Shown: piece by piece, positions 27,298 through 41,971 of the stretch
Layout: each line of letters begins with the position of its first letter
Numbering within the stretch: position 1 is the stretch's first letter
NCBI GenBank assembly: GCA_008273105.1
Contig: GCA_008273105.1_4080.1
Reading direction: 5' to 3' (one strand)
Length of the DNA: 64,000 nucleotides
Origin: a phage
The notes under the pieces: generated by a model
What the model was told of the DNA's origin: nothing
Database searches by the model: none
Seen by the model: the letters and a program-made list of their open reading frames with translations, nothing else
Made by a program: the position numbers and the translations under genes

Positions 27298-27381
27298 AAT
27301 TTTGTTTCCTTTTAGTATCGGGGAGAACTATTCTCCCCTTGATGTAAACTATTATACAGTACTGATATACTTTGTCAATAC

Positions 27382-27603
27382 TTAATTACGTTTAAAATGA
27401 TATGTGCCTTTATCATCCTGTACGCCCCATACTGATTTACCATCAACACCAGTGAAACCGGATTGTAATTCAATATGGAAACCATTATTATCAACTACAA
27501 AAACTTTTTTATTTTCATCCCGATAACATTGATATTCTGAATCAACATTAAAGGCCGCATCATTCAGAAGATTGGAAGCGTAAATGCAAGTCATTGTAGT
27601 CAT
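27382..27603 (-). CDS. hypothetical early protein
   Basis: Start set at MTTMTCIY after AAGGAA; upstream extension is translated UTR hairpin. Confidence 0.5.
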   Translation of the reverse strand: MTTMTCIYASNLLNDAAFNVDSEYQCYRDENKKVFVVDNNGFHIELQSGFTGVDGKSVWGVQDDKGTYHFKRN

Positions 27604-27657
27604 GATTTTATTCCTTATTCTTTGAGGGAGAACCATTTCCCCCTCTCGATATAAAAC

Positions 27658-27685
27658 ATTATACTTGATTCTAAGTACAATGCAA
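27658..27685 (-). promoter_or_regulatory. sigma70-type early promoter (TTGCAT-N16-TATAAT)
   Basis: Minus strand TTGCAT tgtacttagaatcaag TATAAT. Confidence 0.6.
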
Positions 27686-27779
27686 GTACTTTTTAAAAAA
27701 TAGTTTTCAGTACTGAATACTTATATAATAGATACATTTATGCACCCTGTGGGTCAGTGAGCTATCTCTCAATGAATAT

Positions 27780-27828
27780 ATAATAGCAAAGGGACTGACC
27801 GAAGTCAATCCCTTTTTTAATCTTTTTT
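27780..27828 (-). terminator. terminator hairpin overlapping a promoter-like TTGACT-N17-TATTAT element
   Basis: gggactgaccgaagtcaatccc hairpin with A/T flanks just downstream of kinase-like gene; same module at 25.8, 30.7 and 34.4 kb. Confidence 0.45.
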
Positions 27829-28411
27829 ATCGTGTTATAGTTACGGCTTTTACATCCCGCTTTTTATAGTACTGATTCCAGATATTGCGGGTTAAACCGT
27901 AATCAAGTACTTTAATAAGGCCGTTGCGATCCTGGCCGATATTCTGTTTTCTGATATCTCTTATCGTTAGTGTTGACAGTGTATCATCAACGTGTTGTAG
28001 TGCATCAGCAAAGCGGTGCTGGCGTTCAATTGCATTACGTTTAATATTGTACTTTAATTCGTTGCACGCGTTAACGTGCTTTACACTGCCTTTGCTTGCA
28101 GTACTCAACCGATCCATAACGATAAACATATTATCAGGATCGCTTAAATGCATATGCACTTTAGCAAAGTACTGTTTCAATTGAGGGCGGTCATAGTCTA
28201 AAAAATTCCATACCTTACATTCAGTTTCATTTTGTTCTACACCCGCATCACAATTGGCGACCTTAATCACTAACCGATCATTTAAAGCGAAAACTATACG
28301 GGAAGAACCTGCACCGATGATCTCCAAGCCAGCTAACCGACAAGCTGAAAGGATCTCTTTGTTGGTTTCCATTTCTGACAGTGTACGGATGAATTTAGTA
28401 TAATTACGCAT
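27827..28411 (-). CDS. protein kinase-like protein (truncated ePK-like fold)
   Basis: Gly-rich loop IGAGSSRIVF, VIK lysine, catalytic-loop-like IRDIRKQNIG, DYG (DFG-like) with typical spacing; start set at MRNYTKF after AAGGAGA. Confidence 0.6.
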   Translation of the reverse strand: MRNYTKFIRTLSEMETNKEILSACRLAGLEIIGAGSSRIVFALNDRLVIKVANCDAGVEQNETECKVWNFLDYDRPQLKQYFAKVHMHLSDPDNMFIVMDRLSTASKGSVKHVNACNELKYNIKRNAIERQHRFADALQHVDDTLSTLTIRDIRKQNIGQDRNGLIKVLDYGLTRNIWNQYYKKRDVKAVTITR

Positions 28412-28442
28412 TGCATGTTCTCCTTGAGTTAATGAAACTATA

Positions 28443-28685
28443 TTACAGTACTTTACTATCAATGGCAACTACTTTTTTAACATTAACGGCGTGGATCACT
28501 TCCTTCGTGTTTTTAGTACTGAATACTTTTGCCGTACCTTGTTCGACCGCAATACGATAGCGACCGTTAACGTCCACCATGTTGATAAAGTCCGGGGTAC
28601 TGAATGGAGTTACCCGGCATTTAAGAACGGTTAACAGTTCCACCAGCGTTGTAGTCTCTTTGATACGTTTTTCTAAAGTAATCAT
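28443..28685 (-). CDS. hypothetical early protein (paralog of 28743..28961)
   Basis: Start set at MITLEKRIK downstream of TTGACA-N17-TACTAT; six-frame extension MTVLKCFS is translated promoter. Confidence 0.5.
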   Translation of the reverse strand: MITLEKRIKETTTLVELLTVLKCRVTPFSTPDFINMVDVNGRYRIAVEQGTAKVFSTKNTKEVIHAVNVKKVVAIDSKVL

Positions 28686-28742
28686 TTTGTTTTCCCCGTG
28701 TTGGTATGCGTACATAGTACTAAAACATTTGAGTACTGTCAA

Positions 28743-28961
28743 TTAGATAATAGAATATTTCTTTAGTGATAATGCGTCTTCTGTCGGTTGATATTCTACA
28801 CCGTTCCCGTTATCTACCTTAGTGAGTAAACCTTTATCAATGAGTTTTTTGATGGTACGGTTTCCCTGTTGAAAACTGGTGAAGTGTGAATCATTACGAA
28901 AGGTATAACCGTGCTTCACTGCTTCATCAATAGTTTTCTTTTCGATTTTAGATAATTTCAT
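28743..28961 (-). CDS. hypothetical early protein, possible HTH DNA-binding
   Basis: Start set at MKLSKIEKK downstream of TTGACA-N17-TATTAT; HTH assignment is a guess from sequence appearance. Confidence 0.45.
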   Translation of the reverse strand: MKLSKIEKKTIDEAVKHGYTFRNDSHFTSFQQGNRTIKKLIDKGLLTKVDNGNGVEYQPTEDALSLKKYSII

Positions 28962-29017
28962 TTTGTTTCTCTCTCTGTGTTGGTATAGATACATAATACT
29001 AAAACATTTGAGTACTG

Positions 29018-29272
29018 TCAACGTGATATTAGTTTTATTTTTTTATTGTATTGTTGGTGTTCATATAGATTAATTTTTCCAGTACTCTCGATCACTATTC
29101 TATTGTTAGTGTCTACGTCGATTACACGTAGTTTCCCGTTGCTTAACTTCCTAGGCAATAGACTACCATTAATAAACTCATTAGCAAGCTGTACGGCCTT
29201 TGAGATGATTCTCTGTGGGGCTTTATAGTGTACCCGTAATACATTATCGTTTGATAGTTGAACCTTAATCAT
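29018..29272 (-). CDS. hypothetical early protein
   Basis: ORF 84 aa. Confidence 0.5.
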   Translation of the reverse strand: MIKVQLSNDNVLRVHYKAPQRIISKAVQLANEFINGSLLPRKLSNGKLRVIDVDTNNRIVIESTGKINLYEHQQYNKKIKLISR

Positions 29273-29285
29273 TTTGTTTATCCTA

Positions 29286-29311
29286 TAAAAAAGGCGGGAA
29301 CAGTTCCCGCC
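29286..29311 (-). terminator. intrinsic terminator
   Basis: Hairpin ggcgggaacagttcccgcc followed on minus strand by TTTTTTAT, just downstream of 29335..29730. Confidence 0.6.
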
Positions 29312-29334
29312 GTGTTGTTAGTACTGCAATGTTA

Positions 29335-29730
29335 TTAGATAACCTGGCGGCGTTTACTGTATACTGTTACACGGTTTCCTTTACGGTCATGACGGATCTC
29401 TTTCTGGTTACGAATCAGTTCACTTGGACGCTTAAGGTTTGCCAGGTGATCCGCGTGAGTCCATGCATTTGCGTTAACTGTAACTTCAATATCAGAACCT
29501 TCCAAGAAGTCATCTTGAGCGTTCAGTACTTCAGCCAGTTCTTGAGCTTTCTTCAGTTCTGCTTCAGTAAGTACAGGCTCAGGTGAATTCACAATATCAG
29601 AGATCTCTTTGAACTGTACCGCCCAGCGTTGTCCTTTCGGTGCATCTTTGCCCATGTCTTTAAATGTTTCACCTTCTTCACGAGCAACGATGCGAGCTTG
29701 TTCACGGGTAGCGAAGAATTTAGTAATCAT
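29335..29730 (-). CDS. hypothetical early protein (paralog of 41617..41880)
   Basis: Shares KFFATREQARI, TFKDMG, RWAV, DRKGNRVTVY with 41617 gene. Confidence 0.55.
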   Translation of the reverse strand: MITKFFATREQARIVAREEGETFKDMGKDAPKGQRWAVQFKEISDIVNSPEPVLTEAELKKAQELAEVLNAQDDFLEGSDIEVTVNANAWTHADHLANLKRPSELIRNQKEIRHDRKGNRVTVYSKRRQVI

Positions 29731-29829
29731 GGTGTACATCCTATTAGTTAAGTTAATTAGTACTACAAGTTAGAGTCTATTATAAAGTACTATCTGGGCA
29801 ATGTCAAATAGTACTTTAAATGGATTCTA

Positions 29830-30153
29830 TTACATGTCTTTCTTACGTTTTACATCGTAGTAACGAACTGTAATTTCTTTGTTGATCTCTTCCTCGATGC
29901 GGTGAATAACTTTTTCTTTCGGGTTGAAACCTATTACAGTTTCTTTAATGATCTCCAAGCCCGTGTATTCGCCTTGTGTACCGTAACCGTAAGTAAAGGT
30001 TTCATGTCCCAGGTCTTCCCAGCGGTCACCAATCAATGCAGACACGTAGCATGAGTGGTAAGTATTGCCGTGGCTATCAGTCCACCGATTAACTTTAATG
30101 TCAAAGGAAGTTACAATTTTCATTTCTACTTTCTGGGTAAGGATCATAGCCAT
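29830..30153 (-). CDS. hypothetical early protein (paralog of 35992..36315)
   Basis: Shares RWTDSxGNTYHSC, FTYGY and C-terminal VKRKKD. Confidence 0.55.
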   Translation of the reverse strand: MAMILTQKVEMKIVTSFDIKVNRWTDSHGNTYHSCYVSALIGDRWEDLGHETFTYGYGTQGEYTGLEIIKETVIGFNPKEKVIHRIEEEINKEITVRYYDVKRKKDM

Positions 30154-30242
30154 TTTAATTTCTCTCTTTGTTAGGTGGGGAACTATTCCCCACTTGATGT
30201 AAAATATTATACAGTACTAAAAACTATTGTCAAACTATTTTA

Positions 30243-30443
30243 TCAAATTGTTTCCCATTTCATGTTACCCGCTTTACGCTGTGAAACAGGAATAAACATG
30301 TTATTAATGTTACTAATATAACCGACCTGTAAGTCACGCTGTGAACCATACGCCCGACTTGCTGCATTTTTAGCACCGCGTTCTGATTTATAAACGCCGC
30401 TGGATACTGTAAAGCCTACTACACCGAAAGTAAAATGTTTCAT
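30243..30443 (-). CDS. hypothetical early protein
   Basis: ORF 66 aa; TTGACA-N16-TATAAT and AGAGGAA SD upstream; long duplicated leader further upstream. Confidence 0.55.
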   Translation of the reverse strand: MKHFTFGVVGFTVSSGVYKSERGAKNAASRAYGSQRDLQVGYISNINNMFIPVSQRKAGNMKWETI

Positions 30444-30493
30444 TTTGTATTCCTCTTTGTGGTTGATGTAAGTATTATACTCGTTTAATTTCT

Positions 30494-30600
30494 ATTGTCA
30501 AACTATTTTATCAGGGGAGGTTTTCGTATGTCTTACTCCTGGACTACTTAACGGGGAGTTACTTGTTTCGTTCCCCGTCCTGATGTAAAACATTATACGC
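30494..30600 (-). repeat. about 107-bp structured leader repeat (copy 1)
   Basis: Near-identical to 40926-41035; contains hairpin acggggag...ctccccgt and the early promoter -10 region. Confidence 0.7.
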
Positions 30601-30766
30601 TTATCGTGATACTTTGCAAGTACTTTTTAAAAATAGTTTTCAGTACTATCAAATACTAGCCGCCAGCATATAATAGATACATTTATGCACCCTGTGGGCT
30701 GATTTGTTTCTATGCGTATATAATAGCAAAGGGACTGACCGGAGTCAATCCCTTTTTTAATTCTTT

Positions 30767-30916
30767 TTAAACTTGTTTTGGGTTGCGATATGTGATAGCG
30801 TTCGGGTACATTTGTTTAATGTTATTCCATGCCTGGTTAACATTGTAACCACTTGAGCGAATCAGTTGGTTACTACCGACACCTTGAAACACTACTTCGA
30901 ATAAGAATTCTTTCAT
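30767..30916 (-). CDS. hypothetical small protein (49 aa, below ORF-track cutoff)
   Basis: Manual translation MKEFLFEVVFQGVGSNQLIR...; AGGTGA SD; ATGA overlap with upstream gene. Confidence 0.4.
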   Translation of the reverse strand: MKEFLFEVVFQGVGSNQLIRSSGYNVNQAWNNIKQMYPNAITYRNPKQV

Positions 30917-31086
30917 GCTTTCACCTCGCGATCTGCTTTACCTTTACGCCACGACATTACTAATTGTTCGCGTTGCCATAAGTCGAGTGATACAAAAAGT
31001 TTTGCGGTATCACTTTTAGGATACTCGCCATTAGTACCTAACCGATAAAACAGATCTTTCAGTACTGATAATTCTACTTGAATCAT
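30913..31086 (-). CDS. hypothetical small protein (57 aa, below ORF-track cutoff)
   Basis: Manual translation MIQVELSVLKDLFYRLGTNGEYPK...; AGGAG SD; ATGA overlaps both ends. Confidence 0.45.
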   Translation of the reverse strand: MIQVELSVLKDLFYRLGTNGEYPKSDTAKLFVSLDLWQREQLVMSWRKGKADREVKA

Positions 31087-31175
31087 TTTATTACTCCTGA
31101 TTGCGTTAATACTTCTACTATTGCATGAATGATCATAAGTACAGCTAAAACAATAATCATCGGATTCATTTGCAT
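31083..31175 (-). CDS. hypothetical small hydrophobic peptide (30 aa)
   Basis: MQMNPMIIVLAVLMIIHAIVEVLTQSGVIK; AAGGAG SD 8 nt upstream; first gene of a 3-gene mini-operon. Confidence 0.35.
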   Translation of the reverse strand: MQMNPMIIVLAVLMIIHAIVEVLTQSGVIK

Positions 31176-31192
31176 AAGCTGTACTCCTTATA

Positions 31193-31405
31193 TTAATCTT
31201 TCAGCCAATGATCTTGAATGAATTTTTCACAGAATCCCTGTTTCATGGATTCTAACAGGCGTTCGCGGTGAGCGGCGGCATATTGCTCAGTACTATGCGT
31301 TACGCCAGGCTGATAACGTGATACCCCATCCGGTCCGATGTATTGTACATCCCACGGTTTTTCGTTAGTATCAGACCATTTACGAACGATTAGTTGACCT
31401 TGCAT
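31193..31405 (-). CDS. hypothetical early protein
   Basis: ORF 70 aa; AGGAAA SD; UTR hairpin. Confidence 0.55.
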   Translation of the reverse strand: MQGQLIVRKWSDTNEKPWDVQYIGPDGVSRYQPGVTHSTEQYAAAHRERLLESMKQGFCEKFIQDHWLKD

Positions 31406-31489
31406 TTTTCTTTCCTCTTAGTGGGGAGAATCATTTCTCCCCTTCATGTAACTTATTATACAGTACTATAATCTATTGTCAAATACTTT

Positions 31490-31678
31490 TTAAAGTTTAT
31501 GAATCAATTCTTTATCTAAGCGATAGCGTACATTATTAATGGTAACAGCATTATTTTTAATGCTACGCTGTACAGGTCCACCAGCAATAACAAACGTTGC
31601 TTTATTACCCCGAACAATGATAGCACTTCCAGGATTACCGAAATCATCTTGTACTAAAATACTTGATAAGTTTTCCAT
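31490..31678 (-). CDS. hypothetical early protein
   Basis: ORF 62 aa; AGGAAA SD; UTR hairpin aggggaagatgtttcccct. Confidence 0.55.
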   Translation of the reverse strand: MENLSSILVQDDFGNPGSAIIVRGNKATFVIAGGPVQRSIKNNAVTINNVRYRLDKELIHKL

Positions 31679-31756
31679 TTTTATTTCCTCTTAGTAGGGG
31701 AAGATGTTTCCCCTTGATGTAAGTACTATAACAGTACTTAAAACTAAATGCAAGTA

Positions 31757-32113
31757 CTATGATAAAATCATGATAGGATATTCACTATCGATCAGTACCT
31801 CGAATCCGAACCCTTCGTACCATTCTTTAAGATTAAAGGCGTTATCTTCTCCCGTATCGCATTCTAAGATGATACAATCTGAATCATCGGCGGCATCGAT
31901 AAAGGCATTCATTAATTCGTTACCTTCACCATTGCCCCGACTATCAGGATCAACATAAAGAGAATCAATAAACGCTACACGGTCATAATCAAGATCCGGT
32001 GCAATGATTCCACGTTTAACAAACCAGTACTGCAACTGTGCTACTTTGCCCTGTACTTGATAGCCAGTGATCTCGCCATTGTCAGTAGTACGCGTGATAT
32101 GTTGTATTCCCAT
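31757..32113 (-). CDS. GNAT-like acetyltransferase (tentative)
   Basis: VAFIDSLYVDPDSRGNGEGNELMNAF resembles GNAT motif A (R-x-x-G-x-G); short for a GNAT. Confidence 0.35.
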   Translation of the reverse strand: MGIQHITRTTDNGEITGYQVQGKVAQLQYWFVKRGIIAPDLDYDRVAFIDSLYVDPDSRGNGEGNELMNAFIDAADDSDCIILECDTGEDNAFNLKEWYEGFGFEVLIDSEYPIMILS

Positions 32114-32142
32114 GATTTCAATCCTCAGTTAAGATATAAAAT

Positions 32143-32170
32143 ATTATACACTATCTTTCAGTACTGTCAA
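32143..32170 (-). promoter_or_regulatory. sigma70-type promoter (TTGACA-N16-TATAAT)
   Basis: Minus strand TTGACA gtactgaaagatagtg TATAAT upstream of 31757 gene. Confidence 0.6.
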
Positions 32171-32176
32171 TACTTT

Positions 32177-32434
32177 TTATCTCATAGATCTATGCCAACA
32201 ATTACGCGGATCTCTTTTAAAAGTACTATCATGATCCTCCTGGCAAGTAATACAATACATGCACCCTATAACGGCCTGGCGTCGATTCTCAGGGATTTTA
32301 TCGCCGCAGTCGAGGCAATGTACTAGTGATTCTCTTTGTGCGTTAATTTGCTTTCTAGCGTGGTTAACGGCGGCCTGAATCACTGCGTTAATCTCGTCTT
32401 GTTCGGCCCCGTCTTTCGCGAATCCTACAGCCAT
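32177..32434 (-). CDS. traR: TraR/DksA-family C4 zinc-finger protein
   Basis: CLDCGDKIPENRRQAVIGCMYCITCQ matches the TraR/DksA zinc-finger pattern C-x2-C-G-x2-I-P-x2-R ... C-x2-C-Q. Confidence 0.65.
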   Translation of the reverse strand: MAVGFAKDGAEQDEINAVIQAAVNHARKQINAQRESLVHCLDCGDKIPENRRQAVIGCMYCITCQEDHDSTFKRDPRNCWHRSMR

Positions 32435-32763
32435 TATTTTAACCTCATTATAAAAATACTATAGTACTGTAATGCTACAATAATACTACTAGTGCTAATC
32501 TTATTCAAACCACATGATACTACATATCCACCAGCATTACCACGGATAGTAACGCCTTTGTACTGTCTATATAAATTCAACTGCGTATATTGCCTTTGAT
32601 CAAGAATTGATCAGAATTATACGCCTTATGCTAAATTGATCCAGTACTTTTTTGATCATTTATTGATCGATATTATATAGTTACATTTGTGCACCCTATG
32701 GGTTAGTGACGTTCTCGTCTTGATGTAAGTATTATGCCAGTACTGGAGGATATTGTCAATAGA

Positions 32764-32961
32764 TTATTTTAATTTTTTTCTGTCATTGATTAATGCTTTC
32801 AGTACTATACTAATGATTTGCAATGATTCATCAATGACTATAAAATTATTCTCTTTCATTAGATGATAGTTACCATTGATTGTATATTCTAAGGAGTACT
32901 GTTTACGTTTAATTTTTGATAATGTTTCTATTTGTTTTTGTACTGATTTCATGCTAATCAT
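32764..32961 (-). CDS. hypothetical early protein
   Basis: ORF 65 aa. Confidence 0.5.
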   Translation of the reverse strand: MISMKSVQKQIETLSKIKRKQYSLEYTINGNYHLMKENNFIVIDESLQIISIVLKALINDRKKLK

Positions 32962-33066
32962 TGTTAAACGTCCTGTAACGCATTCTAACGAGATAAACGG
33001 TTTAGTACTGACATTGTATAGGGTAATGAATTAAAGCCCACCAGCGTTAACTAGTGGGCTATAATC

Positions 33067-33210
33067 TTACATCTTGCGGATAATCTTAACAGTATCTTTC
33101 ACCGATTTACCGTCTTGCTGGCATTGCTCGATCATTGCGTATTGTTCTGCGGTCAGATCCTCGCCAGTTTTTGCCAGTACTGCGTCGATGAATGAATCCA
33201 GTGCGATCAT
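33067..33210 (-). CDS. hypothetical small protein (47 aa, below ORF-track cutoff)
   Basis: Manual translation MIALDSFIDAVLAKTGEDLTAEQYAMIEQCQQDGK...; hairpin downstream. Confidence 0.4.
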   Translation of the reverse strand: MIALDSFIDAVLAKTGEDLTAEQYAMIEQCQQDGKSVKDTVKIIRKM

Positions 33211-33309
33211 TTTGTTTCTCTCTTAGGTTAAGTTAACTACTGTTGATAAAACTTATTATACAGTACTATCAAACTATGTCAATAACTTTAATAGTACTGG
33301 TAATATATT

Positions 33310-33489
33310 TTAGCGGTAGTCGTCGTATGCTTTATTCACCTGGCGAATGTAACTTTCAAAGGCTTCGTCTACCGTTTCATACTCCCGAACATAATCACCA
33401 TAGGAAACCACATACATACCTTTTTGATCTTCAAACGACATGATGATAGAATCCAGGCCGATGATTTCAGTTTTTGCGATGATAGCCAT
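33310..33489 (-). CDS. hypothetical small protein (59 aa, below ORF-track cutoff)
   Basis: MAIIAKTEIIGLDSIIMSFEDQKG...; preceded by TTGACA-N17-CATAAT and AAGGA SD. Confidence 0.5.
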   Translation of the reverse strand: MAIIAKTEIIGLDSIIMSFEDQKGMYVVSYGDYVREYETVDEAFESYIRQVNKAYDDYR

Positions 33490-33523
33490 TTTTAATTCCT
33501 TAGTAGTGTAGTTGATAAAAGTT

Positions 33524-33552
33524 ATTATGTCAGTACTATCAAACTATGTCAA
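33524..33552 (-). promoter_or_regulatory. sigma70-type promoter (TTGACA-N17-CATAAT)
   Basis: Minus strand TTGACA tagtttgatagtactga CATAAT; AGTACTG sits just upstream of the -10, as in several other promoters. Confidence 0.55.
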
Positions 33553-33571
33553 TAGTACTGTGATAATATTT

Positions 33572-33784
33572 TTAGTTAATGATAGTCAGTGTAAAATTGT
33601 AATCCCCTGCCTGGTATAGTACTTTGTCGCCGAACGTTCCAACACGTTTCATATTGCAATAGATACCCATAACACTTTTTACATCTTTGATATTCCGAAC
33701 GCCAGTAATATCCTTGTTGAAAGTATCATGATCAGAAAATAAAACTTGTTTTGCATTTTTCAGTACAGTGCGGATATTAGCCAT
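33572..33784 (-). CDS. hypothetical early protein
   Basis: ORF 70 aa; UTR hairpin ggggagaactattctcccc upstream. Confidence 0.55.
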   Translation of the reverse strand: MANIRTVLKNAKQVLFSDHDTFNKDITGVRNIKDVKSVMGIYCNMKRVGTFGDKVLYQAGDYNFTLTIIN

Positions 33785-33876
33785 TTTGTTTTTTCTCTGT
33801 TAGTGGGGAGAACTATTCTCCCCTTGATGTAAACTATTATACAGTACTATAATCTATTGTCAAACTATTTTTTATA

Positions 33877-34218
33877 TTATTCGAAATCTTCCGGTACTGA
33901 CTGATAATCATCTTCACCATAAGCACTTTCTAACCGCTCACCAGTGTAATCATCAGTTAGTGAGTCATCCTCATAGTTCACGTCTACGCCAGTGATGTAA
34001 AACTGGCTATCGTCTGGATCATTGAAATTAATTTTTTGGATGTTTACAATAACTGTATTGATGCCCAGGACACCGCCATCAGCCGTTACAAAGTACTGAT
34101 AGTTTTCACAACCGCCTGAATTGAAACCGTAATTAATTTCGGCCCGACCATCATTTAAACGCAGTACCTGGGCGATGATTTCATTTTCAAAGTTAGATTG
34201 AGCAATTGAGATAGTCAT
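33877..34218 (-). CDS. hypothetical early protein, acidic C-terminus
   Basis: ORF 113 aa. Confidence 0.55.
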   Translation of the reverse strand: MTISIAQSNFENEIIAQVLRLNDGRAEINYGFNSGGCENYQYFVTADGGVLGINTVIVNIQKINFNDPDDSQFYITGVDVNYEDDSLTDDYTGERLESAYGEDDYQSVPEDFE

Positions 34219-34428
34219 GATTCGTTTCCTTATTACCAGGGGAAACCGTTTCCCCTTGCGATGTAAAACATTATACGCTTATTGAGATAGTTTGCAAGTA
34301 CTTTTTAAAAATAGTTTTCAGTACTCAAACATTATACAATAGATACACTCCTGCACCCTGTGGGCTAGTGAGCTATCTCTCAATGAATATATAATAGCAA
34401 AATGGCTGACCGAAGTCAACCACTTTTT

Positions 34429-34566
34429 TCATTTATTTTTAGCTTTTAGAATCGCCGCCTTTCGCGTCATGCCTTGCTTGATGTACTCCTTTACTTTCGC
34501 TTTTTTAGCGTTTACCTTGTCTGCTTTCGTTTTAGGAGTACTGTAAATTATACTGTTAGGATTCAT
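34429..34566 (-). CDS. hypothetical small basic protein (45 aa)
   Basis: MNPNSIIYSTPKTKADKVNAKKAKVKEYIKQGMTRKAAILKAKNK; Lys-rich; GGTGA SD; abuts upstream gene stop. Confidence 0.4.
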   Translation of the reverse strand: MNPNSIIYSTPKTKADKVNAKKAKVKEYIKQGMTRKAAILKAKNK

Positions 34567-34656
34567 TTAAATCACCATAAAGAATAGATAGGTTACTAAC
34601 AACGCCGCGATCAATGCACCGACCAGGGCCGAACTGTAATAAGCTAATGATTTCAT
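34567..34656 (-). CDS. hypothetical small hydrophobic peptide (29 aa)
   Basis: MKSLAYYSSALVGALIAALLVTYLFFMVI; ATGA overlap with upstream gene. Confidence 0.3.
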   Translation of the reverse strand: MKSLAYYSSALVGALIAALLVTYLFFMVI

Positions 34657-34805
34657 TTTTTAGCCTGAAAATAATGTTTAATTTGAGCGGCGGTCAGTGC
34701 ACAATTACGCAGGAAGTTTTCTGTATAACTGCGTCGAGTACTGAAAGAAAATTGACCTTTGCCGTTACCGATAGTAACATCAAACCGAGCATTATATTGT
34801 TTCAT
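34656..34805 (-). CDS. hypothetical small protein (49 aa)
   Basis: MKQYNARFDVTIGNGKGQFSF...; AGGAG SD; UTR hairpin ggggagaaccatttccccc. Confidence 0.5.
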
Positions 34806-34886
34806 TTTGATTCTCCTTGTATCAGGGGAGAACCATTTCCCCCTCTATGTAAACAATTATACAGTACTAAAAACTAATTGCAAGTA

Positions 34887-35033
34887 TTATTTTTTAGATT
34901 TACGCAAACTTTCTACCATCTCAGGAGTAAGGCCCGGTGGGTAGGAAACCACTTCATCAACGAAACGTAAAGGGAATACCCCAGCGAAAGGTGAACATGC
35001 TTTCTTAGTATTACTCTTTTTTGATGCTTTCAT
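34887..35033 (-). CDS. hypothetical small protein (48 aa)
   Basis: MKASKKSNTKKACSPFAGVFPLRFVDEVV...; AAGGAA SD; UTR hairpin. Confidence 0.45.
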   Translation of the reverse strand: MKASKKSNTKKACSPFAGVFPLRFVDEVVSYPPGLTPEMVESLRKSKK

Positions 35034-35102
35034 TTCATATTCCTTAATTAGTGGGGAGAATCATTTCTCCCCTTCATGTAAAACATTATACAGTACTGAA
35101 AA

Positions 35103-35312
35103 CTAATTGCAAGTACTATTTGAAAGTAAATGCTCATACGCTGCATTAACTACATTTTCAATAACCGACTGTACAGAAAGATCCCCCACGTCCTGGCTAT
35201 AGTAGAAATTGCTTACAGTGGTGTCATCGTATGCAAATACTTTACCAGGTACTGCATCAATCACATACATATTAACCTTTAAGATGTCGATCTTATCCTG
35301 TACAGTAAGCAT
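35103..35312 (-). CDS. hypothetical early protein
   Basis: ORF 69 aa. Confidence 0.5.
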   Translation of the reverse strand: MLTVQDKIDILKVNMYVIDAVPGKVFAYDDTTVSNFYYSQDVGDLSVQSVIENVVNAAYEHLLSNSTCN

Positions 35313-35317
35313 ATTAA

Positions 35318-35590
35318 TTAACCTTTTAAGTACTGGCTTAAGTAGTCTTTTTGATCTTCGGTGATTGCAGTCATCTTCCCTAGTACTGGATTAATGATAT
35401 AATCCCCTGTAACGTCCTGTAACGCATTCTCAGGCGGTGAAACGGCTGGGGTAGCCATAGCCATTGCCTGGACTTGTTCGACGCTGTAACGCTCATAAAG
35501 GCGGCATTCTTCCGGTGTTAACATAGCATCAGTACGCTTCATCGGTTTAATGATGCTTTCGATCTCATTCAGTACTTGATTAACGTTCAT
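35318..35590 (-). CDS. hypothetical early protein
   Basis: ORF 90 aa. Confidence 0.5.
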   Translation of the reverse strand: MNVNQVLNEIESIIKPMKRTDAMLTPEECRLYERYSVEQVQAMAMATPAVSPPENALQDVTGDYIINPVLGKMTAITEDQKDYLSQYLKG

Positions 35591-35641
35591 GGTATAATCC
35601 CCAATATAAGCGGCCTAAATCGACCGCTAACGATGTTTTGA

Positions 35642-35911
35642 TTAATAGGTGTAAGGTTGACGCTCAAACAATGATTGTACGCTGTACGCCCCGCTAATGG
35701 GCTTCGCTGGCAAATCAATTTTATATTGTTCACGCTTAAAGATAATAAAACGGCAATTGTTTTTAACATCAAAATTGATTGAACGTTCCAGGAGTTTTCC
35801 ATCGTGCACAAATACAAGATAACCGCTTGGTACTTGTTTTGTAGAACTGGTTGCAACCATAGACCGACGAACATGTGTACCTGCATCGATTAAAGTACTG
35901 ATATTTTTCAT
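35642..35911 (-). CDS. hypothetical early protein
   Basis: ORF 89 aa with AGAGGA SD; preferred over overlapping low-complexity frame 35587..35886. Confidence 0.5.
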   Translation of the reverse strand: MKNISTLIDAGTHVRRSMVATSSTKQVPSGYLVFVHDGKLLERSINFDVKNNCRFIIFKREQYKIDLPAKPISGAYSVQSLFERQPYTY

Positions 35912-35991
35912 TTTACTATCCTCTTAAGTTGATTTAATTTCTTTCCCCTATGCAGACACTGTATCAAAGTATCTGCATAAAGTAAAGCTAA

Positions 35992-36315
35992 TTAAAGATC
36001 TTTTTTACGTTTTACATCCTGTACAGTACAATGCAACGGGATAGACAAATCATTACACAAACGAGTAAGGGAGGTTTCAACAGTATCAAGCCCGTCTACT
36101 GATTCCTTTAAGAGATCAAACGCCGTTTGTTGATATGCATCTTCATAGCCATAAGTAAATGATTCAACCGCCAGATCATTCAAACCGTTATCCAGTTCAA
36201 CGCTTACATGACAAGAATGATAAGTATTGCCATATGAATCAGTCCAACGTTTACCGTCAACATTGATTGCATGGATTGCAGCCAGGGAAACGGTGTTGAT
36301 GATAGTTTTAGCCAT
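35992..36315 (-). CDS. hypothetical early protein (paralog of 29830..30153)
   Basis: Shares RWTDSYGNTYHSC, FTYGY, VKRKKD; AAGGAA SD. Confidence 0.55.
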   Translation of the reverse strand: MAKTIINTVSLAAIHAINVDGKRWTDSYGNTYHSCHVSVELDNGLNDLAVESFTYGYEDAYQQTAFDLLKESVDGLDTVETSLTRLCNDLSIPLHCTVQDVKRKKDL

Positions 36316-36406
36316 TTTAGTATTCCTTAAATTAATATGTGTCGTCTTGATAAAATCTATTATGCCAGTACTATCAAACTATGTCAATAGTACTGTGATA
36401 ATATTT

Positions 36407-36619
36407 TTACTTACTTTCTTTCGCTGCTTTATATGTTGCCACTGCCATAACCACATCAGCACGAACAAAGTTTTTAACCGTGTCACTGTAATAATTGATC
36501 GCATCATCTATATCTGCGAACGTCCGATACATACCGCACCAAGATACTTTATAACCTTCTTTCACTTCTGCCAGTTTAACGATAGTCTTGTTAACTTTGA
36601 TTTTAGTAATGATAGCCAT
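36407..36619 (-). CDS. hypothetical early protein
   Basis: ORF 70 aa; AGGAAA SD; UTR hairpin. Confidence 0.55.
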   Translation of the reverse strand: MAIITKIKVNKTIVKLAEVKEGYKVSWCGMYRTFADIDDAINYYSDTVKNFVRADVVMAVATYKAAKESK

Positions 36620-36705
36620 TTTAGTTTCCTTGTAGTGGGGAGAATCATTTCTCCCCTTGATGTAATGTATTATACTTTATTCGATTTACTTTGCAAGTAC
36701 TTTTT

Positions 36706-36933
36706 TTAATTTAATTCATCCAGGCAAAGGATACGCTCAACGCCCAAATCAGTTAAACTAATCGACGGCACTTGATAGGTTTCAATGTATGCTACACTTG
36801 CCCACTGACCGAACTCATTAACGGCCCAGGTATTCATTGCATTTTGCAATTCCGCACCTGCCTTGTTAGTAATGACTGCAACTACTTGTTCGTTGCCAGT
36901 AGTACCAGATACGCGAGTAATGATAATAGCCAT
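36706..36933 (-). CDS. hypothetical early protein
   Basis: Start set at MAIIITRV after AAGGAA; six-frame extension MFYIERG is the translated -10 region. Confidence 0.5.
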   Translation of the reverse strand: MAIIITRVSGTTGNEQVVAVITNKAGAELQNAMNTWAVNEFGQWASVAYIETYQVPSISLTDLGVERILCLDELN

Positions 36934-37170
36934 TGTTTTGATTCCTTTGATTTGGAAGGAGAACCGTTTCCCCCTCTCGATGTAAAACATTATACGCTAA
37001 TCTCTTAATCGTGCAAGTACTTTTTATTACTTTTTGCAAAATACTTTAAACGCTCTCAATCGCATTCTAACGACCTTAACGCCACCAGCTAGGGCGATGT
37101 ATCAGATAATCAGTTTAATGCGTTAGAATCGATTCTAGGCGGTGCTGGTGGACTGGAATACTACAGACAC

Positions 37171-37197
37171 AAAAAAGCCCACTGTTTAAGGTGGGCT
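37171..37197 (-). terminator. intrinsic terminator
   Basis: Hairpin agcccacc ttaaacag tgggct followed on minus strand by TTTTTT; identical copy at 37906-37932. Confidence 0.65.
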
Positions 37198-37218
37198 AGT
37201 GATTCAGTACTTTAATTG

Positions 37219-37701
37219 TTATGCTTCAACTTTGCGATGAGCTTCGATCCATTCCTCGCGAGTCATACCGCTTTCTTTGATAGCGTCCAGTACTACCGCA
37301 ATGCAGTTACCGCGTACAGGAATCATATGTTCTTCCCCGTTATCAAGTACTACAGTAACACGTTCTTGAATCCATTTTTTAGGTTTAGATTCTGGCTTAT
37401 CTTCACCATACTTAACCGCCAGGGCTTTATGTGCCATTTCTACAACTACTTCCAGATCCAATCCAGCCACCGCCGCCTGGATACTTTCGATTGTTGCTTG
37501 CAGTTCGGCTTCACGGGCTTTTTTCTGTTCTTCCAGTTCTGCTACCTTTTTGGCTTGCAGTTCTTTAGCTTCACTGTACGCAATGTTAAAATTGTTGCGT
37601 ACTGCTTTCATGGTATCGTTATCCAGGTCAGCCAACAATTCAGCAGCAATAACAGTATCGTTTGAAATCAGTGCTTTCAGGAATGATTTTACATTAGCCA
37701 T
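37219..37701 (-). CDS. H-NS-like nucleoid-associated protein (tentative)
   Basis: Helical charged N-terminal region (AKELQAKKVAELEEQKKAREAELQ); C-terminus VVLDNGEEH...PVRGNC...AIKESGMTREEWI loosely resembles, from memory, the H-NS C-terminal DNA-binding region; start at MANVKSF after GAGGA. Confidence 0.35.
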   Translation of the reverse strand: MANVKSFLKALISNDTVIAAELLADLDNDTMKAVRNNFNIAYSEAKELQAKKVAELEEQKKAREAELQATIESIQAAVAGLDLEVVVEMAHKALAVKYGEDKPESKPKKWIQERVTVVLDNGEEHMIPVRGNCIAVVLDAIKESGMTREEWIEAHRKVEA

Positions 37702-37905
37702 TTTATAAATCCTCAATTAAAGTTTAGTTTACGTTTATTAGTGTATCAAAGTTTTATCGACGTGTCCAGTTTTTCGTTCGACTTACTGGCGGTCTACTTA
37801 GTGCTCCCCGTCTTGATGTAATACATTCTACGCCTTTTTGTGGTAATGTCAACTACTATTTTAAAACTATTTTTAAAGTATGCAGTACTACGATAATACA
37901 AAAAC

Positions 37906-37932
37906 AAAAAAGCCCACTGTTTAAGGTGGGCT
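37906..37932 (-). terminator. intrinsic terminator (second copy)
   Basis: Same hairpin agcccacc...tgggct + T-run downstream of 37950..38249. Confidence 0.65.
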
Positions 37933-37949
37933 AGTGATTCAGTACTATA

Positions 37950-38249
37950 TTATAAACAGTTAATTACTCCGGTGTGCGTTACTTTCTCAGTATCCATAAC
38001 CGTGACCGATCCACGCTTAGTACTTACATCGTAATAAATTGTCGTGCTACCTTTTTCGTCTTCTTCATGGAACGGGCCGCTTTTAAATGCTTCTGGCTGG
38101 ATCTCTAAATCCTTTAAAACAATCTCGCCAGTACTTTCATCTGTCATCGCAACAGTGCACTGAATGAATTTTTCACTACTTACATCTAACGACGCATTAA
38201 CAGCGAAAGAGGAAACAGATAAAGCCAGGGCGATGATTGCAATTTTCAT
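37950..38249 (-). CDS. secreted/periplasmic protein with N-terminal signal peptide
   Basis: MKIAIIALALSVSSFAVNA-SLD: n-region, hydrophobic core and AxA-like cleavage site; AAGGA SD. Confidence 0.55.
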   Translation of the reverse strand: MKIAIIALALSVSSFAVNASLDVSSEKFIQCTVAMTDESTGEIVLKDLEIQPEAFKSGPFHEEDEKGSTTIYYDVSTKRGSVTVMDTEKVTHTGVINCL

Positions 38250-38333
38250 TTGATTATCCTTAGTTACCAGGGGGAACCGCTCCCCCGTGCGATGTAAAAT
38301 ATTGTACAGTACTAAAAACTAATTGCAAGTACT

Positions 38334-38570
38334 TTATGATTTTTTATAAAACATTTCGGCAGTAATATTTTTACCCGTTGGTTGTACTTTATCCAGAATT
38401 TTTTGATGCCCTGGCCGTCCAAATGAATATGATCCGTAAACCGTAAACCAGTAGTTACCCTCAGTGTTTACATGTACAGCACAATAGGGAACGCCCCGCG
38501 ATTCATCACCAATAAAGTGTGATACCGTTCCCGTTACATTAGCAGACGTTGATTTGATTTGTTCAAGCAT
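38334..38570 (-). CDS. hypothetical early protein
   Basis: ORF 78 aa; AAGGAA SD; UTR hairpin gggggaaccgctccccc. Confidence 0.55.
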   Translation of the reverse strand: MLEQIKSTSANVTGTVSHFIGDESRGVPYCAVHVNTEGNYWFTVYGSYSFGRPGHQKILDKVQPTGKNITAEMFYKKS

Positions 38571-38679
38571 TTTCTTATTCCTTAGTTACCAGGGGGAACC
38601 GCTCCCCCTATGCAAAACATTATACGCGTTTAAAAACTAATAGCAAGTATTTTAATAAAAAGTATTTGAAAAATAATTG

Positions 38680-38708
38680 TTGACAACTGCATCCAGTACT
38701 GGCATAAT
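38680..38708 (+). promoter_or_regulatory. plus-strand sigma70-type promoter (TTGACA-N17-CATAAT), antisense to early genes
   Basis: TTGACA actgcatccagtactgg CATAAT, followed about 28 nt later by CCCACAGGGTGCA at 38737-38749. Confidence 0.45.
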
Positions 38709-38788
38709 TACTACATAAAGACGATACAGTCACTAACCCACAGGGTGCATAGATCCGTCTATTAAATGATTCAGTACTTAACAATAAA

Positions 38789-38806
38789 GGGGATCAATCG
38801 ATCCCC
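38789..38806 (-). terminator. hairpin terminator downstream of 38813..39034
   Basis: ggggatcaatcgatcccc followed on minus strand by TTTATTGTT. Confidence 0.45.
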
Positions 38807-38812
38807 TATGTA

Positions 38813-39034
38813 TTACTTAGTAAGGTATAAACAGAAGTCACCTTTATTTGCTACGCCGCCAGTGTAACGCGATGAATAGTTAGAAACGTCCTGGACTTCT
38901 GCTATTACCAGTGTATCATCATTCAATTCGTCGCAGAAGCAAACGGCTGGATCTTTTACGCCGATCTTGTCGGCATGTTCCCGCATAGATTTAACCAGTG
39001 CTTCCAGTTGAGAAAGAGTAGTGATATTAGCCAT
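38813..39034 (-). CDS. hypothetical early protein
   Basis: Start set at MANITTL after GAGGA; upstream extension is translated hairpin. Confidence 0.5.
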   Translation of the reverse strand: MANITTLSQLEALVKSMREHADKIGVKDPAVCFCDELNDDTLVIAEVQDVSNYSSRYTGGVANKGDFCLYLTK

Positions 39035-39118
39035 TGTATTTTCCTCATTACCAGGGAGAACCATTTCTCCCCTCTATGTAAACTATTATACAGTACTGAA
39101 AACTAATTGCAAGTACTT

Positions 39119-39307
39119 TTAATTAAATTCCATAAAATCATTCTCAACGTGCACAACAATTTGATTGTTTTTAAAGTCCGCAGCGAACTCGATGCAATCA
39201 TAAACCGCTTTTTGTGTTACAATGCTATGAGTACCAATCGGATTAATAGGGGATTGAATTGTTTCAATCTCGTTCCCTTGCTCATTAACAATTAAAATAT
39301 TAAACAT
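39119..39307 (-). CDS. hypothetical early protein
   Basis: ORF 62 aa; AGGAG SD. Confidence 0.5.
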   Translation of the reverse strand: MFNILIVNEQGNEIETIQSPINPIGTHSIVTQKAVYDCIEFAADFKNNQIVVHVENDFMEFN

Positions 39308-39363
39308 CGCTGTTACTCCTGGGTAGTGTTAACTCGATATAAAGTATTATACGCCTTTATTGC

Positions 39364-39567
39364 TTAGTGTCCAGTACTTTTTAAAACATATTCATAAACA
39401 CTACGCACATCATTGATCATCGCCTGGCGGTTAGCAGGTAACGCACCAGGATCGCCACTATCCCAGGCATTGATAAAACTCCCCAAATCATGAAAGATTT
39501 TATTCTGTAAGCCGATTAACTGCAATTCTTTTTCTTCAAGCTCTTTGATACGGTCAATTAAAAGACT
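39364..39567 (-). CDS. hypothetical early protein
   Basis: Start set at MSLLIDRIK after GAGGA. Confidence 0.45.
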   Translation of the reverse strand, partial: SLLIDRIKELEEKELQLIGLQNKIFHDLGSFINAWDSGDPGALPANRQAMINDVRSVYEYVLKSTGH

Positions 39568-39587
39568 CATTAGATAATCCTCAGTAC

Positions 39588-39875
39588 TTAATTGTAAGAT
39601 CCGCAACGGTTACAATAGTGCCCGTCTTCCTCGTCATCGTCAACGAATTGACCGACGAAATTATCTACTTTCTCTTTGAGATTCTGATAATTGTTTTCAA
39701 CTTCCTTTAGACGTTCCTGGTAGTATTCCAGGGCTTGCACATACGCCGCCTCAGCCGTTTTCGCTCTTAAGGCTAAATTCATGCCACGCGTTTCATCGTA
39801 CATCCAAAAGCCATCGGTGCACTCACTGATTGACAATGATTTGGTTAACACTTTATAGTCAATTACTTTGCTCAT
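39588..39875 (-). CDS. hypothetical early protein with C-terminal Cys pair
   Basis: Start set at MSKVIDYKVL after GAGGA; C-terminus HYCNRCGSYN. Confidence 0.45.
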   Translation of the reverse strand: MSKVIDYKVLTKSLSISECTDGFWMYDETRGMNLALRAKTAEAAYVQALEYYQERLKEVENNYQNLKEKVDNFVGQFVDDDEEDGHYCNRCGSYN

Positions 39876-39931
39876 TAGATAATCCTCAGTAAAGGCGGGA
39901 ACCACACCCGCCATTGATTCAGTACTGAATG

Positions 39932-40171
39932 TTACATTCCAACCATTGCAGCACGGATCGCCGTAGTGCTATACTTGAATCCGTCCGGTGTTGTAGTAGT
40001 ACCGTTGGCTTTTAATCTGCGGTACATACATTGGGCCGCAATATCTTTAGTTTTACATTGTGCGATGCAACTTTGAGCAAGCCGATATAATGACTCACCG
40101 TTATTAATCCACAATGAAACATTCCAATGAGTTTTGTTTTTGTGTCCGTTGTAAGTTTTAGTACTAGCCAT
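39932..40171 (-). CDS. hypothetical early protein (paralog of 41972..42211)
   Basis: Shares GHKNKTHWNVSLWINN.ESLYRLAQ and TPDGFKYSTTAIRAAMVGM. Confidence 0.55.
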   Translation of the reverse strand: MASTKTYNGHKNKTHWNVSLWINNGESLYRLAQSCIAQCKTKDIAAQCMYRRLKANGTTTTPDGFKYSTTAIRAAMVGM

Positions 40172-40261
40172 TTTTAAATCCTCGTTTGAGCGGGGAACCA
40201 TTCCCCGCCTCGATATAAAGTATTATACGCTTTTAAACTTAGTTTGCAAGTACTTTTTAAA

Positions 40262-40873
40262 TTAATATGCGATTGATTCTACTACGTCATCAATAACATT
40301 GAATTGATATTCGTTACCCTCAATCAGTGCCGTAATGTTTTCAGTAGTGAATTGATCCTCATATGCATTCTCTAAATCACGGTACAACTTGCGGGATAAT
40401 TCACGAATAGTTTCAGTGAGTAGTTCCTCAAGCTCATTAACTAACGTTTCTTGTTTTGCGGTTAAATCAGTGTAAGCCGATTCAATGTACCCGCTTACAG
40501 TATTCTCATGTGAGTACAAAGAATGAGAACGCTTTACACTCATCGCCAAATCATCTTCATTCAGCAGGTGACGGATTGAGCGATACTTAGTTAATGCTCT
40601 TACCTTGCGTAAAAACTTCACTGCGTCAACGTGGTCAGTACTGATTGATGCACCGTCACCCTGGGACCAAAAACCACTGAATTGTATTTCAGCGTCATTA
40701 ATGCCATATTCCGGTAGTACTGTTTCTTTATAGTATTCAATTTCACTTTCAGAAAAATAATTGTCGTTTGAGTTTTTTTCACGTTCCCGAACCAGTTCGA
40801 TAGCCGCCGCTTGTTGTTCTGCGTTCAGTTCAGAAAAAGCCATAACGAAAGTAGTAGTAGTGATAGTTTTCAT
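40262..40873 (-). CDS. acidic hypothetical protein
   Basis: ORF 203 aa, many D/E residues, motif FSGFWSQGDGASI; GAGGG SD. Confidence 0.55.
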   Translation of the reverse strand: MKTITTTTFVMAFSELNAEQQAAAIELVREREKNSNDNYFSESEIEYYKETVLPEYGINDAEIQFSGFWSQGDGASISTDHVDAVKFLRKVRALTKYRSIRHLLNEDDLAMSVKRSHSLYSHENTVSGYIESAYTDLTAKQETLVNELEELLTETIRELSRKLYRDLENAYEDQFTTENITALIEGNEYQFNVIDDVVESIAY

Positions 40874-40925
40874 TTTGTAACCCTCATTCAGTAGTTTATG
40901 TAAGTATTATACGCTTTTAAAAACA

Positions 40926-41035
40926 TTTGTCAAACTATTTTATCAGGGGAGTTTTTCGTGTGCCTTACTCCTGGGCTACTTAACGGGGAGTTACTTATTT
41001 CGTTCCCCGTCCTGATGTAAAACATTATACGCCTT
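40926..41035 (-). repeat. about 107-bp structured leader repeat (copy 2)
   Basis: Near-identical to 30494-30600. Confidence 0.7.
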
Positions 41036-41095
41036 TAAACATAGTTTGCAAGTACTTTTTAAAAATAGTTTTCAGTACTGAATATTAAAAAAGTA

Positions 41096-41124
41096 TTGAC
41101 AGCATTATCAAGTACTGGCATAAT
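41096..41124 (+). promoter_or_regulatory. plus-strand sigma70-type promoter (TTGACA-N17-CATAAT)
   Basis: Followed by CCCACCGGGTGCA at 41146-41158; convergent with an inverted copy at 41203-41216. Confidence 0.45.
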
Positions 41125-41298
41125 ATACCCCATGACAACAGCTAACCCACCGGGTGCACAATTGTAACTATACTAAACTAATTTTTCTATAGATACACTC
41201 CCGCACCCTATGGGCTACGGCTTATCTGCCAATGAATACATTATGCCAGTACTGACAAAATAAGTCAATACCGGCAATTGTAAAGATTTGTAAACTGC

Positions 41299-41529
41299 TT
41301 ATACTGCAATCGCGTCCAGGCTATAATAATAATAAGTGCCGTATTGGTGTACTTTATTACCTTTTATTTCAGTACTGAATGAATCCGAACGGTTTGCATA
41401 TGATGTTAATTTAAAGTACTTTGATTTGCTGATACGTTGCCATACACCGCAGATCCGCTGTAAGTAAGTAGTTTTATTAGTGGTAGTATCTTTTACGGTT
41501 TTAACTTCAGTCATATACATATTAGTCAT
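41299..41529 (-). CDS. hypothetical early protein
   Basis: ORF 76 aa. Confidence 0.5.
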   Translation of the reverse strand: MTNMYMTEVKTVKDTTTNKTTYLQRICGVWQRISKSKYFKLTSYANRSDSFSTEIKGNKVHQYGTYYYYSLDAIAV

Positions 41530-41616
41530 TTTTATTACTCCAGGTTATAGGCGGGAAGTGTTCCCGCTCTCGATGTAAAACATTATACGCCATTAAACAT
41601 AGTTTGCAAGTACTTT

Positions 41617-41880: not shown

Positions 41881-41971
41881 CATGCTGTTGCCCTTATCGT
41901 TGGTGTATGAATAAAACACTATTATAAAGTACTATCCCCGTGCAATAGTACTTTAAATAAATTCTATTCTA

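Follow-up and report, generated by a model that had tools for sequence, protein, structure and literature searches.

A conserved TraR/DksA-family C4 zinc-finger gene in the probable early region of an Asteriusvirus jumbo coliphage

Introduction

It is established that mobile elements use TraR-type factors to redirect host RNA polymerase (RNAP) without triggering the stringent response. To our knowledge, all TraR homologues tested to date come from temperate phages or plasmids. Our search of the literature for functional work with TraR/DksA-like proteins of virulent phages returned nothing beyond PMC9239242.

The F-plasmid TraR is built of three parts. Its N-terminal helix (residues 2-27) descends the secondary channel of RNAP to within 4.3 Å of the active-site Mg2+, its globular domain (28-57) is placed on the β′ rim helices and contacts β′ Si3 via E46, R49 and K50, and its C-terminal helix (58-73) binds Si1 of the β-lobe (PMC6970531). 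Among the individual residues, R48 acts at the rim helices and R49 and E46 at β′ Si3, and P45 is a further residue of the globular domain (PMC9239242, PMC6970531). Gopalkrishnan et al. [quoted passage not shown] The same study describes lambda Orf73 as a protein that binds RNAP and inhibits rRNA promoters, Rnk as a channel binder that acts by competition only, and some C4-finger TraR/DksA-like proteins that do not act on RNAP (PMC9239242). A further relative, E. coli YbiI, has been reported as 'data not shown' to rescue dksA auxotrophy upon overexpression, while Blankschien et al. (2009) regarded iron metabolism as its more likely role (PMC2613031). The TraR of phage VP882 has a partner, QisA, which is encoded directly upstream and enhances growth arrest, although TraR still needs its RNAP-binding motif. 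Group 2 jumbo phages, Asteriusviruses included, have genes for sigma factors but none for an RNA polymerase (PMC7824862; PMC11895373), and the related phage PA5oct is blocked by rifampicin (PMC7318152).

Here we describe a small zinc-finger gene of this superfamily in an Asteriusvirus, and compare its product with the systems above.

Results and discussion

The zinc-finger gene and its relatives

The stretch of DNA analysed, 64,000 nucleotides long and referred to here as the window, belongs to an Asteriusvirus of the 121Q/PBECO4/UB-like jumbo coliphages (about 350 kb), with 92-96% nucleotide identity in megablast. The gene and its translation signal are located as follows.

32177..32434, minus strand: TraR/DksA-family C4 zinc-finger gene, orthologue of 121Q gp294 (ORF; Pfam, PHROG and PDB matches)
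32442..32446, minus strand: Shine-Dalgarno sequence GAGGT, 7 nt 5′ of the zinc-finger ATG (read from the sequence)

The ORF has an ATG start and encodes 85 amino acids followed by a stop codon (MAVGFAKDGAEQDEINAVIQAAVNHARKQINAQRESLVHCLDCGDKIPENRRQAVIGCMYCITCQEDHDSTFKRDPRNCWHRSMR), and it is a real, conserved gene. An identical protein (100%) is encoded in phage UB, and copies of 91-94% identity are found in 121Q (gp294), SHEFM2K, JP4, vB_Ec-M-J and others, where the Asteriusvirus annotations read 'DksA-like zinc-finger protein', 'C-4 type zinc finger protein' or 'TraR/DksA C4-type zinc finger protein'. More distant copies, 60-73% identical, are present in T-even-like phages (Dhakavirus JS98 orf95, Citrobacter phage Moon, and Yersinia and Klebsiella phages); there the gene is one of the small accessory genes that make up the tk-nrdC block. 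In a representative library clustered at 50% identity, the whole phage clade collapses into a single representative. The proteins that match next are of the YbiI-like and TraR-like kinds, and 578 representatives reach E<=1e-3.

The dN/dS of the gene against the 121Q and SHEFM2K copies is 0.10-0.20, which indicates purifying selection, and the GAGGT sequence is unchanged in both phages. A spurious or decaying ORF with a chance resemblance to the motif might be suspected from the shortness of the frame, its A/T-rich surroundings with many small ORFs nearby, the phage UB record, which leaves the identical ORF unannotated, and the truncated derivatives known in Mosigviruses. Against this stand profile E-values of 1e-9 to 1e-22, a full-length frame retained in 43 clade members at identities down to 60%, the dN/dS and the conserved Shine-Dalgarno sequence, which leave such an origin with a negligible probability; on the homologue conservation and the dN/dS it was ruled out.

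Side by side, the jumbo-phage protein and its counterparts in JS98 (orf95) and Citrobacter phage Moon, which are T-even-like phages of about 170 kb, are 65-73% identical, with a near-identical N-terminus and tail, which suggests that this small gene may have been exchanged horizontally between Asteriusviruses and Straboviridae in recent times.

Genomic context

The gene resides inside a long array of tiny, same-strand and mostly anonymous genes, with the following elements in its immediate vicinity.

32731..32759, minus strand: promoter-like site TTGACA-17-CATAAT with extended TG (11/12), the nearest strong site upstream (promoter scan)
32480..32508, minus strand: weak internal promoter-like site TTGAAT-17-TATTAT (9/12), about 40 nt 5′ of the ATG (consensus match only)
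32434..32580, minus strand: 48-codon ORF, equivalent of 121Q gp293, of uncertain coding status, adjoining the zinc-finger gene upstream
32143..32170, minus strand: perfect sigma-70 promoter TTGACA-16-TATAAT, just past the zinc-finger stop codon, driving the downstream GNAT gene
31757..32113, minus strand: GNAT N-acetyltransferase of 118 amino acids, the downstream neighbour (Pfam PF00583, 37.2 bits)

Between 29 and 36 kb there are seven perfect 12/12 TTGACA-16/17-TATAAT sigma-70 promoters on the strand of the gene, and the promoter scan of this region returned 43 promoter-like sites, compared to 25.0 +/- 4.8 in shuffled sequence. The site at 32731..32759 is likely the promoter of a transcription unit composed of the 48-codon ORF and the zinc-finger gene. 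It is invariant in 121Q and has two spacer changes in SHEFM2K, and its hexamers, the TG and a leader of ~50 nt are the same in the window, 121Q and SHEFM2K.

In phage vB_Ec-M-J the zinc-finger orthologue is found at 12349-12606, within an annotated direct terminal repeat of 21,525 bp, which places the gene near the genome end and in two copies per genome. The first-pass annotation had assigned the gene to an early module, and the perfect sigma-70 promoters, the one-strand array of tiny genes and the terminal repeat of vB_Ec-M-J all agree with that label, which is well supported by inference. A search of the literature for a transcriptome of the genus Asteriusvirus found none. The vB_Ec-M-J repeat (record positions 1-21525) also holds the whole small-gene block homologous to about 31-35 kb of the window, and the early genes would thus be diploid in the virion genome.

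The stop codon of the 48-codon ORF overlaps the zinc-finger ATG (TAATG), so the two may be translationally coupled. In 121Q and SHEFM2K the frame of the upstream ORF is intact and its changes are conservative, at a dN/dS of about 0.13 against 121Q. Its product was also considered as a conserved partner akin to the VP882 QisA; however, the gene at the same position in JS98, MobD.3, is unrelated in sequence and a Pfam search of the 48-residue product gave no match, and the partner idea is therefore unsupported. On the downstream side, the pairing of the zinc-finger gene with the GNAT gene is conserved in 121Q, SHEFM2K and vB_Ec-M-J. Phage GNATs are said by Iyer et al. to be among the candidate host-hijacking enzymes.

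Several further features of the region are of note in their own right. Near-identical strong promoters recur across window positions 27378-44019, 14 of them on the minus strand and two (38680 and 41096) on the plus strand, and they share a layout of A/T-rich upstream sequence, TTGACA, a spacer of 16-17 nt ending in AGTACTG(G), and TATAAT or CATAAT, followed by A/T-rich discriminators and a conserved A/T-rich start region, for example AGTTTACATCAAG; the CATAAT subclass has an additional common downstream box, CATCAAGACGA. From the promoter at 32759 through the initial ~110 nt of its transcript (window 32640-32760, minus strand), the window, 121Q and SHEFM2K show almost 100% identity, and this stretch is more tightly conserved than the flanking coding sequence. 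Between this promoter and the 48-codon ORF, six of the 33 GATCAA sites of the 64-kb window are gathered within 73 bp (32596-32668), the TTGATCAA palindrome among them. The full set is present in 121Q and about half of it in SHEFM2K, and the cluster may represent arrayed Dam/SeqA sites or binding sites for a regulator. A search of the conserved leader and the GATC cluster as an RNA element gave no Rfam match, and the predicted fold of the leader is no better than that of shuffled sequence (z=-1.27). Finally, two near-identical hairpins with 12-bp stems, AAAG.G.TTGACT-loop-GTCAG.C..TTT, are found at 30728-30755 and 34399-34426 on the minus strand, each followed by GCTATTATAT. As the stem holds the TTGACT -35-like hexamer of a promoter-like site, the pair appears to represent a repeated composite of hairpin and promoter.

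Family assignment and predicted fold

The first-pass annotation had read the product as a TraR/DksA-type C4 zinc-finger protein, and both the motif string it quoted, which is found exactly in the ORF translation, and the profile searches bear this out. Pfam PF01258 (zf-dskA_traR) matches residues 39-68 with 36.8 bits, above its gathering score of 24.9 (E=3.9e-9), and PHROG 54, "DksA-like zinc-finger protein", matches over profile positions 9-73 of 75 (69.2 bits, E=5.7e-19). Among the NCBIfam models the best is the YbiI-type NF008243 (79.9 bits, E=1.4e-22, residues 1-73), with a score below the equivalog cut-off of 96. Scores are likewise below the cut-offs for TIGR02419, the TraR-family model of phage and conjugal-plasmid C4 zinc fingers (49.2 bits, cut-off 59.7), and for NF010268, the F-plasmid TraR model (31.4 bits, cut-off 108), and the DksA model NF033459 gives only a weak match (E=0.038). 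A sequence search of the PDB ranks E. coli YbiI first (2KGO, E=6.4e-12, residues 1-69) and then the TraR chains of the RNAP complexes 5W1S and 6N57 (E about 7e-6).

An AlphaFold2 model built with 54 homologues has a mean pLDDT of 72.9. In the model, a single long N-terminal helix (residues 6-28) precedes the finger, after which come a short helix at 62-68 and a tail of low confidence that includes a four-residue helix; the first 10 residues are also of low confidence, with a pLDDT of about 51. The best Foldseek matches of the model in the PDB are again YbiI (2KGO) and TraR (6N57_M/5W1S_M), the latter aligned over about 63 residues with a TM of 0.46-0.53, while the matches to DksA have E>0.5. 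Because of the profile, PDB and fold matches, the protein is to be considered a genuine member of the DksA/TraR superfamily. Within it, the protein is nearest to the YbiI-like branch, but it is not a YbiI equivalog. Since relatives already carry the TraR/DksA annotation, the first-pass reading is correct, though not new: the family, the phage context and the orthologue annotation (RefSeq and Pharokka; 121Q gp294, PHROG 54) are already known.

The zinc finger and the RNAP-contact residues

The finger was located by a regular-expression scan.

32243..32317, minus strand: C4 zinc finger C40-x2-C43-N17-C61-x2-C64

The sequence CLDCGDKIPENRRQAVIGCMYCITCQ thus forms a CxxC-N17-CxxC finger. The segment I47-P48-E49-x-R51-R52 inside it aligns with I44-P45-E46-x-R48-R49 of TraR, and G57 is the counterpart of TraR G54. 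The four cysteines, I47, P48, R51, R52 and G57 do not vary among 54 homologues, at least 90% of which also keep E49. As judged from the alignment, the counterparts of the RNAP-contacting residues in the globular domain of TraR (P45, E46, R48 and R49) are kept in the phage protein. A six-frame translation of the 64-kb window revealed no second TraR-type finger. Two other CxxC...CxxC strings in the window, at 25498 and 51387, were rejected as not TraR-like.

The best solved match to the protein by sequence and by fold is E. coli YbiI, and the two agree in the spacing of the finger, in the IP[EQ]xRR segment and in overall length; both also have a basic C-terminus with R as the last residue and an N-terminus of the form MAxG[FW]A.DGA.Q. 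Besides the score below the equivalog cut-off, the two differ in residue 11 and in the tail, as described below, and YbiI is a chromosomal protein grouped with iron-metabolism genes, whereas the phage protein is the product of a presumed early gene. With the F-plasmid TraR (5W1S, 6N57) the protein has in common the Pfam family, the residues listed above, a similar length (about 73 versus 85 residues) and, in the predicted model, one N-terminal helix with no coiled coil, although identity is about 25-30%. DksA (1TJL, 5VSW) has the same C4 finger domain and presumably the same general strategy of binding the secondary channel; however, it is a protein of 151 residues with a coiled coil that requires ppGpp, whereas the phage protein has a single N-terminal helix like TraR.

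The N-terminal motif and the C-terminal tail

Both termini of the protein are peculiar to its clade, and the features at each are placed as follows.

32396..32413, minus strand: acidic motif D8-G-A-E11-Q-D13 of the N-terminal helix, a candidate counterpart of the TraR DxxDxA (clade conservation; Orf73 register)
32180..32221, minus strand: phage-clade-specific C-terminal tail FKRDPRNCWHRSMR (clade conservation; PHROG 25948 match)

The canonical DxxDxA at residues 3-8 is absent from the protein and from its clade. Instead, the clade begins with MAVGFAKDGAEQ, from which only one or two of 43 members depart. A K[DE]G[AG]EQ string is present in all 43 proteins with the phage-type tail, in which [DE] is residue 8 and E is residue 11, and position 11 in the bacterial YbiI-like proteins is V. 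The result is an acidic pair spaced i/i+3 near the tip of the helix and preceded by an extra N-terminal MAVGF, which 42 of the 43 phage-clade proteins share unchanged. In comparison with DxxDxA, the candidate motif is five residues further from the N-terminus, has E for the second D and lacks a conserved A. A count of acidic pairs at fixed offset among 203 homologues is confounded by one-residue indels in the linker between helix and finger, and the N-terminal strings were therefore used instead.

A correspondence is seen with lambda Orf73, to which residues 28-74 align without gaps in BLASTP (Orf73 residues 23-69, a stretch that takes in the finger and the beginning of the C-terminal region) with 45% identity over 47 residues and a pairwise E of 2e-12. 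When this ungapped register is extended, D8, E11 and D13 fall on D3, D6 and A8 of lambda, and the distances of the acidic pair from the first finger cysteine, 32 and 29 residues, are the same in lambda Orf73 and P2 Orf82. In the MAFFT alignment and in the TraR register (offset 3), on the other hand, the acidic residues do not coincide with DxxDxA. The D-G-A-E-Q-x string is thus a candidate equivalent of DxxDxA, the equivalence of which depends on the alignment register chosen. Orf73 also resembles the phage protein in an extra cysteine beside the second CxxC (G-C-x-x-C), and in an early expression from a region of small accessory ORFs, which for the phage gene is deduced from context. Unlike the phage protein, it starts with MADIIDSA, a canonical DxxDxA at residues 3-8, so that the phage protein is five residues longer at the N-terminus and carries E and D where Orf73 has D and A; the tails differ as well, and lambda is temperate whereas the Asteriusvirus is a virulent jumbo phage.

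At the C-terminus, the clade follows the pattern FKRxPRNCWHRSMR, of which RNCWHRSMR is invariant in 42 of 43 phage-clade proteins. The tail of bacterial YbiI is NRRGSKDSQLR and Orf73 ends in RGSK. The sequence past the finger is unlike that of TraR, and where TraR has its Si1-contacting C-terminal helix, the predicted model has a shorter helix and the clade tail.

A related ORF is found in Mosigviruses (vB_EcoM-RPN187 gp103, and also PhAPEC2), where a frame of 54 amino acids at the equivalent position retains only the second CxxC and the tail (..VIYCVGCQSMHDEIFKREPRNCWHRSMR, PHROG 25948) behind an unrelated N-terminus. It may have been left behind by recombination of the zinc-finger gene, or it may be a sign that the tail works alone.

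A proposed role in host takeover

By homology, the protein is probably an early, TraR-type and ppGpp-independent binder of the RNAP secondary channel; the reprogramming of host RNAP that the first-pass annotation had proposed is plausible from the sequence comparisons. According to this model, a small TraR-type factor would be made early by a jumbo phage that encodes no RNA polymerase and relies on the host enzyme. The N-terminal helix (residues ~6-28) would enter the secondary channel and bring the acidic pair D8/E11 toward the region of the active site, and host promoters with short-lived open complexes, those of rRNA and ribosomal-protein genes, would be inhibited. RNAP might thereby be released for the near-consensus sigma-70 promoters of the phage, which have A/T-rich discriminators. 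Consensus promoters with A/T-rich discriminators are expected to escape inhibition, given the promoter selectivity of DksA and TraR. The binding to RNAP, the promoter-selective effect and the benefit to the phage are all inferred here from sequence relationships.

The evidence that favours the model comes from several sides. The PF01258, PHROG 54 and PDB matches and the TraR/YbiI-like predicted fold are joined by the invariant or nearly invariant counterparts of TraR I44, P45, E46, R48, R49 and G54, and by the identity to the RNAP-binding Orf73, in whose register D8 and E11 fall on acidic residues. All five phage homologues tested bound RNAP, the two with an incomplete DxxDxA among them (PMC9239242), and YbiI, the closest solved relative, has the reported dksA rescue (PMC2613031). 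Also in agreement are the dependence of Group 2 jumbo phages on the host enzyme (PMC7824862; PMC11895373; PMC7318152), the perfect promoters with A/T-rich discriminators around the gene, the terminal repeat of vB_Ec-M-J and the low dN/dS. On the opposite side, the candidate motif is shifted and non-canonical, the scores are below the cut-offs of NF008243, TIGR02419 and NF010268, the predicted C-terminal region has a short helix and a low-confidence tail in place of a long TraR-like helix, RNAP is not the target of every C4-finger TraR/DksA-like protein (PMC9239242), and the YbiI rescue is a 'data not shown' statement (PMC2613031).

Those same deviations from TraR allow for other functions. The conserved globular contacts in combination with the non-canonical N-terminus would fit a protein that occupies the channel without TraR-like allostery and excludes DksA/ppGpp and GreA/GreB, thereby blunting the stringent and stress responses of the host, or one in which the five-residue MAVGF extension ahead of the acidic pair extends to the active site and inhibits catalysis directly. 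Rnk provides a precedent for action by competition alone, but P2 Orf82 and X. bovienii Gp34 still regulated promoters with their imperfect motifs, if less efficiently, and the extension itself lies in the low-confidence first 10 residues of the model; we regard this as an unlikely account. A YbiI-like protein directed at something other than RNAP, be it a host protein, a nucleic acid, a metal or iron process, or the GNAT or 48-residue ORF product as a partner, appears rather unlikely. The iron-metabolism role favoured for YbiI, the closest characterised relative (PMC2613031), the sub-threshold scores with the TraR-specific models, the RNCWHRSMR tail with no counterpart in TraR, the zinc-finger/GNAT pairing kept in Asteriusviruses and the upstream-encoded partner of the VP882 TraR would be in line with such a target. 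Yet the residues conserved family-wide are exactly the RNAP contacts of TraR, the T-even-like phages that carry the clade protein have neither a GNAT neighbour nor a homologous upstream ORF, and the VP882 TraR still requires its RNAP-binding motif in spite of the partner.

Both termini could also point to a phage clade that is not a plain TraR mimic, in which the extended N-terminus might pass the position of TraR S2 into the active site and serve as a catalytic plug or a Gre-like modulator (D-x-x-E), or the tail might recruit another target. We consider this quite improbable; if it were true, no TraR-family effector of strictly virulent phages would have been characterised before this one, and its mode of action would be distinct.

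Significance

As an annotation, the finding is of limited practical value, since it confirms that of the existing orthologues and holds nothing surprising to specialists. It is mildly interesting for the virulent-phage origin of the protein, its variant N-terminal motif and the invariant tail of its clade. The variant motif could reveal which parts of DxxDxA are really needed, and a virulent, host-RNAP-dependent jumbo phage with a two-copy early TraR-like gene appears to be a reasonable system for studying host takeover.
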